Source of the DNA: Acidimicrobiales bacterium
GTDB lineage: Bacteria; Actinomycetota; Acidimicrobiia; Acidimicrobiales; SHLQ01
Direction of reading: 5' to 3'
DNA: 64,000 bases
Assembly (NCBI GenBank): GCA_020628865.1
Contig: JAHDEJ010000001.1
Location: forward strand, 170,395-234,394
Shown: positions 43,428-50,510 of the stretch, one piece after another
Position numbering within the stretch: position 1 is the stretch's first letter
Layout of the letters: every line of letters starts with the position of its first letter
Notes under the pieces: generated by a model
What the model saw: the letters and a program-made list of their open reading frames with translations, nothing else
Databases searched by the model: none
What the model was told of the DNA's origin: nothing
Made by a program: the position numbers and the translations under genes

Positions 43428-43903
43428 GCGATCTGAACGCTGTCAGCCTGAACGTCAACGGCGTGCCATACGACGTCGCCATCACCACCGACCGGAACCT
43501 GTCCGGCGTCATCCGCAACGAGGTCGGCCTGACCGGCACCAAGGAAGGCTGCGACGATTGCGAGTGCGGCGCGTGCATGGTGCTCCTCGACGGTCAGCCG
43601 ATCAACTCGTGCTCCTACCTGGCCGTCCAGGCGCAGGGTCGTGAGATCACCACGGTCGAGGGCCTGGCCGACGGAACCGACCTCCACCCGCTGCAGGAGA
43701 ACATTCTCGCCACCGGCGGCGTGCAGTGTGGCTTCTGCACCCCGGGCATGTTGATGTCCGCGCAGGCGCTGTTGGATCGCACGCCCGATCCGTCGCTCGA
43801 GGAGATCAAGATCGGCCTGTCGGGCAACCTCTGCCGGTGCACGGGATACGCCCGGATCCTCGCCGCGGTCGAAGCGACCGCCGTCGAGATCAACGGTGCC
43901 TGA
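43424..43903 (+). CDS. (2Fe-2S)-binding small subunit of XDH-family enzyme
   Basis: CDDCECGAC...NSC and CGFCTPG...CRCTGY cluster motifs. ATGA overlap with the medium subunit. Confidence 0.9.
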   Translation: MSDLNAVSLNVNGVPYDVAITTDRNLSGVIRNEVGLTGTKEGCDDCECGACMVLLDGQPINSCSYLAVQAQGREITTVEGLADGTDLHPLQENILATGGVQCGFCTPGMLMSAQALLDRTPDPSLEEIKIGLSGNLCRCTGYARILAAVEATAVEINGA

Positions 43904-44546
43904 CCCTCAGCCCAGCCGCACACTCGGCCCGTTCGATGGGGTCCTGTTCGACAACGATGGCGTGCTCGTCGACTCGCATGCCCACGGCGAGATCGCGTGG
44001 CGGACGCTGTGCGACCGATTCGGCCTGCCGTTCGACGAGATCGTCACGACGTTCGTGGGCCGACGTCCCGAGGACACGTTCGGCGAACACCTCGACGGCG
44101 AGCGGCTCGCCACGGCGATCGACGAGCTCGAAGCGCTCGAGATCGAGCTCGCAGCCGAGACTCCGGTGCTTCACGGAGCGATCGAGCTGCTCGACGCACT
44201 CACGCTGCCGTGGACGGTGGTGACCTCAGCGTCGCTCCCGTTGGCGGTCGCCCGCTGGCAAGGCGCTGGGCTGCGAGTTCCAGAACAGGTCGTGTCGGCA
44301 GAGTCGGTCAGCCGCGGCAAGCCGGACCCGCAGCCATACCTGGCCGGCGCCGAGCTGCTCGGGGTCGATCCTGAGCGGGTGCTCGTCTTCGAAGATGCGC
44401 CGGCTGGAGGGCTCGCCGCAACGGCGGCCGGCTGCACGGTCGTCGCCGTCGGCGACACGCCATGGACGATCGAGCCCGCCGCCCGGGTACCTGACCTGTC
44501 GTTCGTTCGCATTGCCGAAGACGGCGCAATGTTCACGATGGGGTGA
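43896..44546 (+). CDS. HAD-superfamily hydrolase (beta-phosphoglucomutase-like subfamily IA)
   Basis: DNDGVLVDS motif I, TSAS motif II, GKPDPQPY, and FEDAPAG motif IV. GTG start overlaps the upstream gene by 8 nt. Confidence 0.8.
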   Translation: MPDPQPSRTLGPFDGVLFDNDGVLVDSHAHGEIAWRTLCDRFGLPFDEIVTTFVGRRPEDTFGEHLDGERLATAIDELEALEIELAAETPVLHGAIELLDALTLPWTVVTSASLPLAVARWQGAGLRVPEQVVSAESVSRGKPDPQPYLAGAELLGVDPERVLVFEDAPAGGLAATAAGCTVVAVGDTPWTIEPAARVPDLSFVRIAEDGAMFTMG

Positions 44547-44578: not shown

Positions 44579-45916
44579 TCAGGGAATCAGGCTCCATTCG
44601 GCCGTGGGTGTGCCGAAGTCGCGGCGGGCTTCAATCTTCACGACGGTGAGGTCCTCGGGGATGTCGAAGGCGATCCAGCCGCCCGAGACGCCATCGACGG
44701 GGACATTGGCGAAGTTCAGCGGATCGCCGAGGGTGACCTGCCGGAAAGACTCACCGATTGCTTCGCCATGCTCGCCGATCAAGGTGAAGACCGGAACACC
44801 TTGTTGATCACCGGTGAGGTTCTCGAGCTCCACGAGTGCAGCGACGACCCGATCACCGGCCACCGGCGGGACGATGGCGTTGGCCGGGTCGGCCACGAAC
44901 TCGATGCTGGTCCGAAGTCGGGAGCCGTTGGCATTCACCAGGATCACTTCATCGCTGAGGACGTTGCCGCCCCGCGTGGCGACCGCGACTGGGGCGACGG
45001 AGATGCCGCGAGTCAGATCCCATGTGCCGATGTCGGGCGAGAAGCCGGCATCCATCCGCACCTCGAGTCGAACGGGGTCGACGTCGCTCGGCATCTCGAA
45101 GGTCACCCAGCCCATCCGGACGTCGCCGGCAGAGTGGGTCCAGCATCCAAGGAGCGGACCGGCGGTCACCCGCTCGAAGTTCGAGACGTAGCTTGCACCA
45201 TCGGAGCCGACCAGGCGCAGGACGCTCGACGAGCAGTCGGAGATCACTCCACTGGTCAGGCGACTCGACACCTGTACCGAAACGAGCCGGTTGCCGGCAT
45301 CAGGGGCGAAGATCGACAGCGTCTCGGTTGCCTCGTCGACCAGGTCGTGGACGATCCAGTCGGCGGCCGCACCATCGGCGGTCAACGCAACGGTCGAGCC
45401 GAGCACACCGTCGGCCCGCTCGGTCGACTCGCACGTCGCCCGAATCGTTCCAGCCTGCGCGTCGACGCAGACGTCGTTGTCGGCCCGACCGTAGAGCCGG
45501 TCACGCCGGCCGCGCCCGCCATCGAGAATGTCGTCGCCACCGCCGCCGATGATGCGGTCGTTGCCGCGATCGCCGTAGATGATGTCGGCTCCTGCGTCGC
45601 CGTTGATGCGATCGCCTTCGTCGCCGCCGAAGATCGTGTCGGCCTGCCGTCCGCCGAAGATCCGATCCCGACCGGGGCCGCCGCAGATGATGTCGCGGCC
45701 GCTGAACCCGCGAATGAAATCGTTGCCGCCGAGGCCGGAAATGACGTCGCGCCCCTCGGTGCCGAGGAGGACGTCGTCGCCCTCCGTGCCGAGAATCGTG
45801 ACCGCCGCGCCGCCACAGGTCTCGACGTTCTGTGCGCCCGCCGCCGACCCGACCGCCAGCACCGACGCCATCAGCGCAATCACCAGTCCGATCGCACGTC
45901 CGGTCCTCATCTTCAT
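44579..45916 (-). CDS. secreted RTX (hemolysin-type calcium-binding) repeat protein with C-terminal Ig-like (DUF4352-like) domains
   Basis: Start MKMRTGRAIGLVIALMASVLAVGSAAGA (signal peptide) 7 nt after GAGGTG. N-terminal GGNDFIRGFSGRD / GGPGRD / GDEGDRING... repeats. Confidence 0.75.
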   Translation of the reverse strand: MKMRTGRAIGLVIALMASVLAVGSAAGAQNVETCGGAAVTILGTEGDDVLLGTEGRDVISGLGGNDFIRGFSGRDIICGGPGRDRIFGGRQADTIFGGDEGDRINGDAGADIIYGDRGNDRIIGGGGDDILDGGRGRRDRLYGRADNDVCVDAQAGTIRATCESTERADGVLGSTVALTADGAAADWIVHDLVDEATETLSIFAPDAGNRLVSVQVSSRLTSGVISDCSSSVLRLVGSDGASYVSNFERVTAGPLLGCWTHSAGDVRMGWVTFEMPSDVDPVRLEVRMDAGFSPDIGTWDLTRGISVAPVAVATRGGNVLSDEVILVNANGSRLRTSIEFVADPANAIVPPVAGDRVVAALVELENLTGDQQGVPVFTLIGEHGEAIGESFRQVTLGDPLNFANVPVDGVSGGWIAFDIPEDLTVVKIEARRDFGTPTAEWSLIP

Positions 45917-46138
45917 TGACATCACCTCGTGTTCAGCGCCCATTGCAGGCTTGCGCATGGTGACGGGCTTCGCAAGGGCGGGCCAACCCGGCGTCCCGCC
46001 GTGTTCGTTGTCGCTCGTTCTGTCACTGGGAGGCGCGATCGTGCCGCAACCCGGACAACCTGCGACGACGCCCCGACCGTCCGTGACGCTCAGGAGGACA
46101 ACGGACGCCCGGAGTGGTTCAATCGAGACGTGGAAGGG

Positions 46139-47113
46139 ATGGCGAGCGACACACCGGAGATCGACGCGGTCCTGCGCGCCGTCGATTCGATCTGCCGGCC
46201 CGGCTCGTTCCTCAACGGCGAGGAGCGGCTGTTCGTCGCCCGAGCCACGCGCGAATTCCGATCCGGCTCGACCCCGTCCAACCCTCTGCTCCCCCGAGCG
46301 GTCGTCGATGCCGTTCGCCGACTCACGATCGAACCGTGGTCCATCACCGATTCCCATGTCTTCGAATGGGACATCGCCGGCCTGCACAAGCTCGCCTATC
46401 TGGAGATCATCTCTGTGGTCGCTCGCATGGTGGCGGTGGACAGTTGGACCGATGGCCTCGGCCTTCCGAACGCACGTCTGCCGGTTCGGGTGGACCGCGG
46501 GTTCCCGATTGCGATGGTGGACCGAAACGCTCGCACGACGTCGGCGTGGGTCCCGACGGTCGGCGCTCCCCGGGCGGACACGGCGATGTCCGCACTGCCC
46601 GAAGAGGAAGCGTCGCTCTTCGACCTGCTCCGCGTCTTCTACCTTCCGATGGAACGAGTGGCCGAGGTCGACCAGCCGTCGAAGCGGCTGTTGTCCCGGC
46701 CCCAGATCGAGCTGATCGCCGCCCGAACCTCGAGCCTCAACGAGTGCTTCTATTGACTGTATTCACACGCCTGGATGCTCCGTGAGAGCTCCGATGCCGC
46801 CAACCTGCCGATCGACCTGCGAGCCGTCCGCGACTCGACGATCGACCCCCTGACGCCCCTCGGCCCCGAACTCCTGGCCTTCACCGATGCGCTGGTCCTG
46901 CAGGACCACGACGAGTTGGAGATCGCCCGGACCGACGTGCAGCTGCTGCTGGGCGAGGCAGGCGTGGAGGCGGTGAGCGGCGTCGTGGCCGCATTCGAGA
47001 TGATGAATCGCCTGCTCGACGGTGTGGGCGCCCCGGTGAACCCGAAGTTCATGGACACCGAGGTGTCGATCGGGCTCAGCGCGCCCGGTAACCGTCCATC
47101 ATCATCTTCGTGA
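46139..47113 (+). CDS. AhpD/carboxymuconolactone-decarboxylase-family protein interrupted by an in-frame TGA at 46754-46756 (Sec candidate, or a pseudogene)
   Basis: ORFs 45929..46756 and 46775..47113 share a frame. The junction reads E-LIAARTSSLNE-C-FY-[TGA]-LYS-H, which equals E-x11-C-x2-C-x3-H with the stop at the second Cys. Confidence 0.6.
46763..46787 (+). promoter_or_regulatory. candidate SECIS-like stem-loop 7 nt downstream of the in-frame TGA
   Basis: TCACACG / CGTGAGA stem (one A-A mismatch) around the 11-nt loop CCTGGATGCTC. This is a weak, eye-found structure only. Confidence 0.25.
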
Positions 47114-47690
47114 ACGAGTTCATCGTCTCGTCCATCGTGGCGAGGACCCGTTCGTTCTTCTCGGCGACACCCGGCAGAGCGGAGTGCAGCACCGCGTAGC
47201 CGTGCACGGCCGACCAGGTCATGGTGGCCGCCGCATCGATGTCGAGCGAGGGATTGTGTGCGTCTCGGATTGCCGTGATGCCATCCAGGAGGCGCTGGTA
47301 CGCACCCACCGAAGCTTCGATGAACGCCTCGTCGGCGTCGTCGACCAGCTCGTCGGTGCACATCACGCCGAAGTGTCCGGGGTTGTTGAGTGCCGTCCTG
47401 ACGTAGGCCTTGCCCATTGCGTTCAGCCGTTCGATCGGGTCGTCCAACCCTTCCACCGCTTCGTCGAACGCAGCGACCAGCGTTGCGAAGCCCTCGGCGG
47501 CCACGGAGGTGAGCAGACCCTTCGAACTGCCGAAGTGATGGGCGGGTGCGGCGTGGGAGACGCCTGCCCGCCGGGCGACCTCTCGCAAGCTGAAGCCGGT
47601 GGGGCCCCGCTCGGTGATGAGCTCGACGGTTGCGGCTCGCAGGGCCGAGGGAAGGTCGCCGTGGTGGTACGTGCTGGTGGCCATCGACAT
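47076..47690 (-). CDS. TetR/AcrR-family transcriptional regulator
   Basis: N-terminal HTH FSLREVARRAGVSHAAPAHHF. 204 aa. Divergent from the MMPL gene. Confidence 0.9.
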   Translation of the reverse strand: MSMATSTYHHGDLPSALRAATVELITERGPTGFSLREVARRAGVSHAAPAHHFGSSKGLLTSVAAEGFATLVAAFDEAVEGLDDPIERLNAMGKAYVRTALNNPGHFGVMCTDELVDDADEAFIEASVGAYQRLLDGITAIRDAHNPSLDIDAAATMTWSAVHGYAVLHSALPGVAEKNERVLATMDETMNSFTKMMMDGYRAR

Positions 47691-47789: not shown

Positions 47790-50510
47790 GTGAACGGACG
47801 AACCATGTTGAAACCGAATCCCGAAATCCCGACGAACCCGACCCGAATGCACCGCGTGTTCGACACGCTCAGCCAGAACACCGGCCGGCTTCTGCTCGTC
47901 GTCGGCGCAATCACCGCCCTGCTTCTCGTGCCCTTCCTCACGATGGCACCGGACACCAGCGCATCGACCGAGCCGACCGGCGACGTCTTTACCGCCCGAG
48001 ACCGAATCGACGACACCTTCATCTCCTCGGTGCATCCGACCTTCGTGATCGTCGAGCACGAGTCGGGGCAGATCCTGACCGTCGAGGCGCTCGGCGGGCT
48101 GTTCGAGGCGCAGGAGGCCCTCCGGTCCGACCCCGAGCTCGGCACCACGCTGTTCCAGACCTTCGATGTCGAAACCCGTCAGGACGTCAACGGCATCCTC
48201 AGCCTCGCCGACCTGGTCGACGCCGAGCTCCGGGCGCAGGGCATCGACGGCATCGCCGCCGCCACCGATGACCAGGTGCTGGCCACAGGCACGGCCATCA
48301 TCGACGAGCTCGGTGAGCGGTCGGATGCATTGCAGCTCTCTGCCCTCTCGACCCGCACCGACGACGGCTGGGTCGTACCCGCACTCTCGCTCATCGTGCT
48401 CTCCGACAACGACGCTCTCGGCTTCGGCAACACGTCGGTGAACCTCGGAGGAGGGACCGAGGTGGAGGAGTTCGATCGAGAAATTCAGGAGGTCTTCCGC
48501 ATCGACGGCTGGCAGGCCAACGGCGTCGCCATCGACGTGAACCTCACCTCCCAGGAGCAGGGCGCCGTCGCCGGCCCGTTCATCGGATTCACCATCCTCG
48601 CCGTCCTGCTGATGATCGGTCTGACCTTCCGCAGCTACTGGGTCCTCGCCACGGTGAGCGTCTCGTTCCTTGCGCTGATCATCTGGCTCAAGGGCATCAG
48701 CAACCTGATCGGACTGAAGGACGATCTCGTCCTGAGCCTGATCGTTCCCGTCGCCATGATCAGCTTCGGTGTCGACTTCGCCTTCCATGCGATCGGCCGG
48801 TACCGAGAGGAACGGGCGGAGGGCCGCCCGGCGAGCCCGGGCATCGTGGCCGGCATGACCGCGGTGACGAGCGCCCTCGTCCTTGCGCTCATCTCGGACT
48901 CGACCGCCTTCCTCGCCAACCTCACCTCGGGCATCGAGTCGATCAACCAGTTCGGTATCGGTGCGGCCATCGCCCTGGCGGCCGCGTACCTGCTGCTCGG
49001 CATGGTCACGCCGCTCGTGATCGCCCGGATCGAGGCCTCGGTCCCGACGCCGACGCCGGGTCGCCGCTCCACGGCGCTTCGCCTGTTCGGTGCGTTCGGT
49101 GCAGCTGGCATGACCATGGCATCGGTCCTCCTGCTGGTCTTCATCCTCCCGTGGCTCGGTGCGGTCTTCGCTGTGCTGACCACCGTCGCCGTCCTCGTCG
49201 TGCCGTTCCTCGTGCAGCGCCGTCGGACCGAGGGTGAGCGGGTCGGCAACGTTCCCGTCTCGGCCGACGAGAACCGCCTTGCTCCTCCTATCGGCCGCAT
49301 GGTGTCTGCGCTGGCGAACCGCCCCCGCATCGTGCTCCCCGTGGCCGTCGCCATCACTGCCGCTGCTGCAGTGTTCGCCGTCCAGGTCCCGGCCGAGTTC
49401 GACGTCGAGGACTTCTTCTCCTCCGACACAGACTTCGTGGTCGGCCTCGACCAGCTGGACACCCACGTCGGCGACCGCGGCGGCGAACCAGCACTCCTCT
49501 ACGTCGAGGGCGACCTCGCCGACCCGGGTGCACTGGCCAGCGTTGCCGCCGGCATCGACGACATCCGGGCGCTCGACGTCCCGTCGCTCGCTCGGGACGA
49601 AGCGGGTGTGGCCGTCAGCCGCGGCATCTTCTCGGTCTTCGACGCCACGTGGGACAGTGCCCCGATGCCCGGCATCGTGCTCGAGCAGACCGGCGTGGAA
49701 CTGACCGACACCAACGGCGACGACATCCCCGACTCGCGGGAGCAGATCGAAGCCCTGATCGGTGTGGCCTCGACGGTCGGCGTGCCATTCGACGCCACCC
49801 GGCCGATTCTCACGCCAGACGACGTGAACACGGCCGTGCAGTTGAACGGCGCGGATTCCCGGACCGTCTTCGAGATGGGCGTGGTCGACAGCCGCTCGCA
49901 GGAGTCGGTGGCCGCCACCGCGGACGCCCTCGACCCGATCGCCGAGTCGATCGCCGACGACCTCGGCGGGACGTTCGTGCAGGTCACCGGTTCGGCGCTG
50001 ATCCGGGAGGCGTCGCTCAACGCCACGAACCGGGCACTGCAGGTGTCGCTGCCCGTGGCCCTGGCGCTGTGTCTGCTCGTGGGCAGCGTGTTCCTGCGCT
50101 CGATTCGGTACGGCCTCGCCAGCATCGTGCCGATCATGATGGTCGTCGCCTGGCTGTACGCCGTCATGTACCTGGCCGGCTTCGCCATCAACCTCGTGAC
50201 CGCGACGATCGCCGCCGTCTCCATCGGCATCGGCATCGACTTCGCCATCCACCTGATCGCCCGCTACCGAGAAGAGCTGGACCGCACCGGCAGCCGTTCG
50301 GAGGCGATCCGGATCAGTGGCGAAGGCACCGGACTCGCACTCGTCGCATCGGCCATCAGCTCGGCGATCGGATTCGGCATTCTCGCCCTCGCCCCGATGC
50401 CGCTCTTCGCCGCCTACGGCCTGCTCACGGCACTCATGATCATGATGGCGCTCGTCGCCACGCTCGCCGTGCTCCCGGCGATCCTCGTGGCCATCACGTC
50501 CGACCGGTAG
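47790..50510 (+). CDS. MMPL/RND-superfamily membrane transporter
   Basis: ~900 aa with two 6-TM bundles and two large extracytoplasmic loops. Alternative starts at 47805 and 47847. Confidence 0.85.
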   Translation: MNGRTMLKPNPEIPTNPTRMHRVFDTLSQNTGRLLLVVGAITALLLVPFLTMAPDTSASTEPTGDVFTARDRIDDTFISSVHPTFVIVEHESGQILTVEALGGLFEAQEALRSDPELGTTLFQTFDVETRQDVNGILSLADLVDAELRAQGIDGIAAATDDQVLATGTAIIDELGERSDALQLSALSTRTDDGWVVPALSLIVLSDNDALGFGNTSVNLGGGTEVEEFDREIQEVFRIDGWQANGVAIDVNLTSQEQGAVAGPFIGFTILAVLLMIGLTFRSYWVLATVSVSFLALIIWLKGISNLIGLKDDLVLSLIVPVAMISFGVDFAFHAIGRYREERAEGRPASPGIVAGMTAVTSALVLALISDSTAFLANLTSGIESINQFGIGAAIALAAAYLLLGMVTPLVIARIEASVPTPTPGRRSTALRLFGAFGAAGMTMASVLLLVFILPWLGAVFAVLTTVAVLVVPFLVQRRRTEGERVGNVPVSADENRLAPPIGRMVSALANRPRIVLPVAVAITAAAAVFAVQVPAEFDVEDFFSSDTDFVVGLDQLDTHVGDRGGEPALLYVEGDLADPGALASVAAGIDDIRALDVPSLARDEAGVAVSRGIFSVFDATWDSAPMPGIVLEQTGVELTDTNGDDIPDSREQIEALIGVASTVGVPFDATRPILTPDDVNTAVQLNGADSRTVFEMGVVDSRSQESVAATADALDPIAESIADDLGGTFVQVTGSALIREASLNATNRALQVSLPVALALCLLVGSVFLRSIRYGLASIVPIMMVVAWLYAVMYLAGFAINLVTATIAAVSIGIGIDFAIHLIARYREELDRTGSRSEAIRISGEGTGLALVASAISSAIGFGILALAPMPLFAAYGLLTALMIMMALVATLAVLPAILVAITSDR

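Follow-up and report, generated by a model that had tools for sequence, protein, structure and literature searches.

The subject of this analysis is a candidate selenoprotein gene in a 64,000-nucleotide (nt) stretch of DNA from an Acidimicrobiales bacterium (GenBank assembly GCA_020628865.1, contig JAHDEJ010000001.1, positions 170,395 to 234,394; hereafter the window), which has a G+C content of 67%. Two open reading frames (ORFs) on its + strand, 45929..46756 and 46775..47113, occupy the same frame and are separated only by the TGA at 46754-46756 and six sense codons (46757-46774). This arrangement had been described in a first-pass annotation, which took the TGA for a possible selenocysteine (Sec) codon of an alkylhydroperoxidase (AhpD)-like protein, and both frame and coordinates were confirmed. 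The TGA is the sole interruption of the frame from 46139 to 47113, with ATG 46139 being the likeliest start, GTG 46130 a possible alternative and 47111-47113 the stop codon. Read through, the peptide runs ...RPQIELIAARTSSLNECFY up to the TGA and LYSHAWMLRES... beyond it, giving the junction NECFY-TGA-LYSH. For mechanical ORF finders, ATG 46775, six codons past the TGA, is the start of the second ORF. Scanning the window for other in-frame TGAs with high G+C at third codon positions on both sides returned eight positions, all in non-coding or antisense frames.

Table 1. Features of the candidate selenoprotein locus and its surroundings (window coordinates).
Feature	Position	Strand	Basis or remarks
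Predicted complete selenoprotein gene	46139..47113	+	324 codons plus stop, Sec = codon 206; split by gene callers into ORFs of 205 aa and 112 aa
UGA predicted to be read as Sec (U206), second-Cys position of the C-x-x-C redox motif	46754..46756	+	Homologue ends, codon counts, alignment to Cys proteins
Active-site segment E191-x11-C203-F-Y205-U206-x3-H210, AhpD-type proton-relay/redox motif	46709..46768	+	Sequence, alignment to 6k40 and 2pfx; E191 46709-11, C203 46745-47, Y205 46751-53, H210 46766-68
C-terminal AhpD/CMD-like helical domain, residues 182-304	46682..47050	+	PDB sequence matches, sub-threshold TIGR01926/TIGR00778, model of homologue P0110
Family-specific N-terminal helical region, residues 1-181	46139..46681	+	NF041238 coverage, conserved columns, helical homologue model
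Bacterial SECIS-like hairpin GGA(U)GCUC-CGUGA-GAGCUCC	46773..46792	+	Fold, pairing, covariation, RNAalifold, codon constraint, bSECIS criteria
HAD hydrolase gene	43896..44546		Part of an upstream block found in relatives
RTX-repeat protein gene	44579..45916	-	445 residues
Terminator-like GC hairpin with T-rich tail	45989..46001	+	Probably chance
TetR regulator gene	47076..47690	-	Convergent with the selenoprotein gene
MMPL/RND-type transporter gene	47790..50510	+	Divergently paired with the TetR gene

The first-pass annotation had placed the stop at the second Cys of the Glu-x11-Cys-x2-Cys-x3-His signature of AhpD and carboxymuconolactone decarboxylase (CMD) proteins. Residue coordinates and alignment agree with this placement: the signature is present as E191, C203, U206 in place of Cys, and H210. 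The Sec codon is aligned with Cys both in solved AhpD-family structures, where it falls on the second Cys of the CxxC motif (nrCvYCavSH of 6k40, nkCFYCLvaH of 2pfx), and in full-length Cys homologues. Two of the latter, P0110 and L100, are each 38% identical to the window protein over 300 residues and carry Cys at exactly the Sec column; in L100, which originates from the Acidimicrobiia metagenome-assembled genome (MAG) JAOTZB01, the motif reads CFYCLLSHAW without interruption. The N-terminal family region and the C-terminal AhpD-like domain of the window gene lie in one frame and are collinear with both homologues.

When the U of the query was replaced by C, the read-through protein matched the NCBIfam model NF041238 (AhpD_rel_CFYUT, alkylhydroperoxidase-related (seleno)protein) with 223.3 bits and an E value of 5.4e-66, residues 10-307 corresponding to model positions 8-342 of 357. 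The cut-off of this equivalog model is 175 bits. The gene is a member of this already catalogued selenoprotein family; its Sec codon is almost certainly real, but it is not new.

We next turn to the conservation of the UGA. When the read-through sequence was searched against 5.8 billion proteins, all 88 homologues (28-98% identity) covered just the first approximately 60% of the query and ended in C-x-Y, 84 of them in CFY; gene callers therefore terminate the whole family at the Sec codon. Correspondingly, each of 60 N-terminal fragments in a joint alignment ended in the column immediately preceding the one in which the full-length homologues have Cys. As the stop is conserved family-wide, its occurrence at the catalytic position is not due to chance. 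Close relatives, with protein identities of 98%, 87% and 78%, have the same adjacent, same-frame ORF pair in the same neighbourhood on seven independent contigs, which stem from ENA, Logan and JGI assemblies. The gene most closely related to that of the window is in MAG CALBVR01 (uncultured Acidimicrobiales L2_Bin_Bin_149_1; locus L001, the same as L026).

To view the codon itself, we scanned one genome per species, 185,579 species in all, with the degenerate pattern A-A-R-x-S-x-x-N-E-C-F-Y followed by TGA, TGC or TGT, which yielded at least 120 loci. Among the matches listed, the codon at the Sec site was TGA in 124 cases, TGC in one and TGT in none; another count of this codon gave 129 TGA and one TGC. 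All copies kept U-x3-H and a frame open for about 115-130 codons past the Sec codon. Based on the record titles, 51 of the listed loci belong to Acidimicrobiia or other Actinomycetota and 16 to Chloroflexota; the remainder are distributed over Gamma-, Alpha- and Deltaproteobacteria, Myxococcota, Spirochaetes, Gemmatimonadota, Acidobacteriota and others. The 118 residues past the TGA were used as query in an exhaustive HMMER search, which returned 184 cluster representatives. Among the best 150 of these, 134 were fragments of at most 200 aa beginning just past the UGA column (126 of the 134 start with M), and only 11 were full-length proteins without Sec (315-429 residues), with C at this column in six, S in three, G in one and V in one.

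Some members depart from the common pattern. L100 is the only TGC copy among the 125 listed; a SECIS-like sequence, GGCUGCUC-CGGGC-GAGCGCC (reverse-complement position about 738), still follows its codon, and this retention suggests a fairly recent Sec-to-Cys conversion. Full-length relatives with Ser, Gly or Val at the catalytic column (P0093, P0134, P0221, P0144 and P0104, the last having lost both redox residues) are presumably inactive or of different function. In five Chloroflexota/Dehalococcoidia MAGs (L060, L076, L079, L096 and L098), two same-strand paralogues lie about 1.1 kb apart, both with an in-frame TGA; judged by their sequences, these are putative tandem selenoprotein genes.

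In bacteria, Sec is inserted when the complex SelB-GTP-Sec-tRNA(Sec) binds an mRNA hairpin downstream of the UGA, the Sec insertion sequence (SECIS); how SelB recognises the SECIS can differ between lineages. When the region past the UGA was folded in 125 family sequences, a common hairpin emerged about 20-38 nt past the U of the UGA, typically GCUGCUC-N5-GAGCAGC. We evaluated this helix on 124 distinct sequences aligned without gaps (A2) and on 500 shuffles. The 7-bp helix was paired in 91.4% of the alignment cells, compared to 30-49% when the 3' partner was slid by 1-3 columns. Changes on both sides of the helix occurred in 31 cells versus 6.5 ± 2.0 in the shuffles, none of which reached 31, and the covariation score of 0.209 was likewise never attained (0.142 in shuffles; 0/500). 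RNAalifold independently gave a 5-bp core of the same hairpin. The helix overlaps the conserved residues L-L-R-x-S, yet its synonymous sites are constrained as well: in the 5' arm, Leu is encoded by CTC in 116 of 117 sequences, while CTC makes up 36% of the Leu codons in the rest of those genes, and the Ser codon of the 3' arm is AGC or AGT in all 112 sequences (40% elsewhere). The native 30-nt segments had a mean folding energy of -10.9 kcal/mol, compared to -7.2 kcal/mol for synonymous recodings.

In the window, this hairpin is formed by the pairs G46773-C46792, G-C and A-U, a bulged U46776, and the pairs G-C, C-G, U-A and C46780-G46786. It therefore has 4 + 3 bp and a loop CGUGA (46781-46785) with G at the second position, followed by U; it is located 24 nt from the UGA and has a folding energy of -9.8 kcal/mol. 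The published consensus for bacterial SECIS elements (bSECIS) calls for 3-9 nt in the apical loop with a G among the first two of them, 4-16 bp in the upper stem, a distance of 16-37 nt between UGA and loop and a minimum free energy of at most -7.5 kcal/mol (PMC13188914). The window hairpin lies within all of these limits, and so do those of 110 of the 123 family sequences of the Sec form; the G of the loop is invariant.

A different stem-loop, at 46763-46787, had been put forward in the first-pass annotation. Its arms TCACACG (46763-69) and CGTGAGA (46781-87) do pair, at six of seven positions; the structure, however, is not conserved. Across the 124 sequences it was paired in 65% of the cells, which was no better than shuffles (242/500), and it had no excess covariation. 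It also falls outside the bSECIS consensus in three respects, its loop being of 11 nt with no G at either of the first two positions, and its distance from the UGA only 13 nt. The two structures are mutually exclusive, and the SECIS-like element is the hairpin at 46773-46792.

The genes for Sec insertion were then considered in the wider group. Neither linked sel genes nor a gene for tRNA-Sec was found at 127 family loci (tblastn with E. coli SelA, SelB and SelD; ARAGORN); the gene therefore lies outside any sel cluster. As a probe for other genomes, E. coli SelA matched Enterobacterales only, and it was replaced by a codon pattern for the motif GDKLLGGPQ and then by a SelA from an Acidimicrobiales MAG (L266). 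The motif pattern gave at least 120 matches; all those listed encode SelA, 68 with an adjacent SelB gene and 39 with a nearby tRNA-Sec gene. With the L266 probe, selA was found in at least about 70 Acidimicrobiia species among the matches listed. At the 70 listed loci, selB adjoins selA in 66, and selA, selB, selD and tRNA-Sec occur together in eight. Sec machinery is thus common in Acidimicrobiales. One MAG, CALKOE01 (uncultured Acidimicrobiales S2_Bin_Bin_210_sub_1), carries both a CFY-TGA gene (on L102) and selA (on L399). It is the only MAG in both the family-gene and the selA list among the matches listed, and it serves as an existence proof, not as a rate.

From the sequence evidence, we consider it very probable that 46139-47113 encodes, as a single gene, a selenoprotein of NF041238 with 324 residues, and that it has UGA 46754-46756 as a genuine Sec codon that is served by a SECIS. 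Following the established bacterial pathway, SelB-GTP-Sec-tRNA(Sec) would bind the hairpin 46773-46792 and deliver Sec while the UGA sits in the ribosomal A site, and translation would then run to the stop at 47111-47113.

Several observations weigh against this interpretation. As the first-pass annotation had correctly remarked, there are no sel genes in the window: selA, selB, selD and tRNA-Sec were not found within the 64 kb (tblastn with the E. coli proteins; ARAGORN returned a tRNA-Ala only). The 80-nt fold of the window sequence is not thermodynamically exceptional by itself (z = 0.46), and the hairpin signal appeared only in the family comparison. Unlike in the majority of the family, the lower stem in the window needs a bulged U. 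Rfam gave no match, neither in a gathering scan of the whole window nor in a scan of 46650-46900 at E<=10. The protein also misses the gathering score of the Pfam CMD family PF02627 (20.7 versus 23 bits, residues 182-217 only), and TIGR01926 (peroxidase-related; 47.3 versus 81.8 bits) and TIGR00778 are likewise sub-threshold. It is a divergent member of the CMD superfamily, with membership carried by the active-site signature and AhpD-family homology rather than by Pfam. Finally, we know of no Se-incorporation experiment for any member of NF041238.

How the UGA might be handled otherwise has two versions. In the first, the genome would lack selABCD, and UGA and hairpin would be used in another way, by SelB-independent recoding or by deliberate termination that yields a two-piece enzyme; a milder form holds that the short clade without the N-terminal insert described below acts on a different substrate, for example in Bmp8-like reductive chemistry and not in peroxide defence. 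To this we assign only a small chance. In the second, to which we assign a smaller chance still, the canonical SelB/SECIS route would not be involved: the UGA would be read through by a near-cognate tRNA (Trp, Cys or Arg), or translation would terminate and restart at ATG 46775, with the 205-aa and 112-aa products assembling. The window without machinery genes would fit such decoding, and a restart would fit the ATG six codons past the TGA in the window clade as well as the nearby Met of many other members, as seen in the called C-terminal fragments. However, the stretch from the TGA to ATG 46775 contains H210 and three further conserved residues, all of which a restarted product would lose. 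Moreover, the position of the hairpin, the size of its loop and the invariant G therein fit the bSECIS consensus, homologues carry Cys at exactly the Sec column, and the family is taxonomically patchy and occurs in lineages where selA and selB are found.

The first-pass annotation had also considered a fresh pseudogene, in which a TGC- or TGT-to-TGA nonsense mutation truncated a Cys-type AhpD-like gene and left the downstream ORF to decay. A single base change would indeed suffice, rare Cys forms exist (L100 and the six full-length representatives), and the missing sel genes in the window would be compatible with it. We compared the 118 codons past the TGA pairwise between the window and its relatives L001, L004 and L006, using the Nei-Gojobori ratio of non-synonymous to synonymous substitution rates (dN/dS). 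Against L001, 33 synonymous and 4 non-synonymous differences were counted, with dN/dS being 0.03 past the TGA and 0.02 upstream of it; the corresponding values were 0.095 and 0.108 against L004, and 0.27 and 0.15 against L006. The 118 codons are under strong purifying selection, and both sides of the TGA are alike constrained. No frameshifts or extra stops were found in these codons in the comparison of window and relatives. With synonymous distances (dS) of 0.4-1.2 from the window, L001, L004 and L006 represent distinct lineages, and all of them keep the TGA. Because distinct lineages keep the codon and the sequence behind it is selected and intact, a recent nonsense mutation or a sequencing error is for practical purposes ruled out. 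Among the genome copies listed, the relatives carry TGA with a single TGC exception, the downstream structure is conserved down to its synonymous sites, and the family is curated as one of selenoproteins; hence a pseudogene is hardly credible, and the preference for Sec is upheld. That the TGA is a sequencing or assembly error has no specific support and a negligible probability, since the same codon is present on the seven independent contigs of relatives and throughout the family.

For the fold of the product, we modelled the Cys homologue P0110 from a 146-row alignment (model m07313b7c22a5). The model is all-helical, with a predicted local distance difference test (pLDDT) score of 97.0 and a predicted template modelling (pTM) score of 0.94. 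The best PDB matches in a Foldseek search were all AhpD/CMD proteins (6K40, 2PRR, 3C1L, 2OYO, 3LVY, Bmp8, 6E8L and 1KNC), with probabilities of about 1.0 and target-normalised TM scores of 0.52-0.63, but they covered only about half of the chain, at E values of 0.009-0.6. The search also listed Bmp8, a debrominase of the CMD family (6OHJ/6OHI; probability 0.96-0.98), and Sestrin2, a protein with two AhpD domains (5T0N; query TM 0.40, probability 0.23). From these two matches, the family-specific N-terminal half may, in the homologue model, be a second, degenerate AhpD-like domain. In another respect, this half differs between clades: most NF041238 members carry a C-x-x-C...ALSP...GEH insert (at window residues about 40-55, within 46139-46400; alignment A1), a possible second site for redox chemistry or a metal. 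The insert is wholly absent from the window clade and from a Dehalococcoidia-type clade (P0011, P0014 and P0023).

By analogy with these proteins, the product is inferred to be an all-helical thiol-selenol oxidoreductase of the AhpD/CMD fold. Sec would occupy the position of Cys133 of M. tuberculosis AhpD (MtAhpD), which is reported by Koshkin et al. 2003 to be the attacking nucleophile; if so, Sec would be at the nucleophilic second position. C203 and U206 would form a reversible selenenylsulfide, with E191, Y205 and H210 supplying the proton relay described for MtAhpD and P. aeruginosa PA0269. This relay consists of Glu118, Cys130, His132, Cys133, His137 and a water in MtAhpD, and of Glu36, Cys48, Tyr50, Cys51 and His55 in PA0269 (PMC3141380). 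The window residues E191, C203, Y205, U206 and H210 show identical spacing, with a Tyr of the PA0269 type. A peroxiredoxin, a hydroperoxide or another disulfide are candidate substrates.

The neighbouring genes, for an RTX-repeat protein, a HAD hydrolase, a convergent TetR regulator and an MMPL transporter, give no hint of the substrate. No ahpC gene is adjacent to the window gene, and the neighbours in relatives are the same or unrelated; an AhpC/AhpD pair was thus not found here. The RTX protein has an N-terminal signal-like segment, calcium-binding RTX repeats (PF00353, E 1.6e-23) and a weak match to DUF4352; its gene is divergent from the selenoprotein gene and syntenic in relatives. The 3' ends of the selenoprotein gene and the TetR gene overlap by 38 nt (47076-47113). 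L001-L004 retain the TetR/MMPL arrangement; L006 does not. Upstream, L001, L004 and L006 share a block for isocitrate dehydrogenase, a CN-hydrolase, a three-subunit molybdopterin/FAD/2Fe-2S (xanthine-dehydrogenase-like) enzyme and the HAD hydrolase, of which the HAD gene was confirmed in the window. A scan of 45850-47250 for promoters and terminators returned nothing relevant to the selenoprotein gene. The terminator-like site in the 220-nt gap between the RTX and selenoprotein genes is probably due to chance, as one such site compares with 0.6 expected from shuffles.

For practical purposes, the locus should be annotated as one coding sequence with a transl_except at 46754-46756 instead of two hypothetical ORFs. 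The scale of mis-annotation is considerable: the closest proteins, 88 of 88, are truncated at the Sec codon, and 134 of the best 150 C-terminal representatives are cut there likewise. Two NCBI records (P0006 and P0022) are named 'alkylhydroperoxidase-related (seleno)protein', yet their translations stop at ...NECFY. The gene also marks its Acidimicrobiales host as a probable selenium user.

Among the known systems, MtAhpD works with AhpC and lipoamide/DlaT, and no genes for such partners flank the window gene. MtAhpD (1KNC) and PA0269 (2O4D) share the Glu-x11-Cys-x2-Cys-x3-His proton-relay/redox signature with the window protein, and in PA0269 the second Cys is likewise preceded by a Tyr (PMC3141380); both, however, use Cys and not Sec, and their identity to the window protein is only 15-25%. 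The best sequence matches to residues 182-304, and likewise the best structural ones, are the peroxidase-related AhpD-core structures 6K40 (D. radiodurans; E 2.6e-7), 2PRR, 2PFX, 3C1L and 2OYO (E values up to 1e-2), with PA0269/2O4D also matching by sequence. Their CxxC aligns to C203/U206, but they contain Cys, cover only about half of the protein and are mostly uncharacterised in function.

AhpD-like CxxU proteins ranked with the most abundant families of selenoproteins in the Global Ocean Sampling (GOS) data (PMC2398784). Like the window protein, AhpD-like 1, AhpD-like 2 and CMD-domain selenoproteins (COG2128, PF02627, TIGR01926; PMC1088965, PMC2398784) have CxxU in an AhpD/CMD fold, and as in NF041238, Sec replaces the second Cys and the hosts are environmental, often marine, bacteria. 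They are, however, single-domain proteins of about 180-190 residues, whereas NF041238 carries an extra N-terminal region of about 180 residues. NF041238 itself corresponds to 'hypothetical protein 1' of the Sargasso Sea selenoproteome (Zhang, Fomenko & Gladyshev 2005), which was described from four sequences with a conserved CXXU and no functional evidence (PMC1088965); the family is also listed in PMC13188914. The window gene has in common with it the C-F-Y-U motif, the two-part architecture, the in-frame UGA and the downstream hairpin. It differs in that the residue after Sec is Leu (CFYUL) instead of the Thr of the model's name, in that its clade is devoid of the N-terminal CxxC-containing insert, and in the bulged U of the lower SECIS stem. 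The result is an annotation correction and not a discovery: the family goes back to a prediction of 2005, NCBI now curates it, and the window gene is no departure from this known kind.

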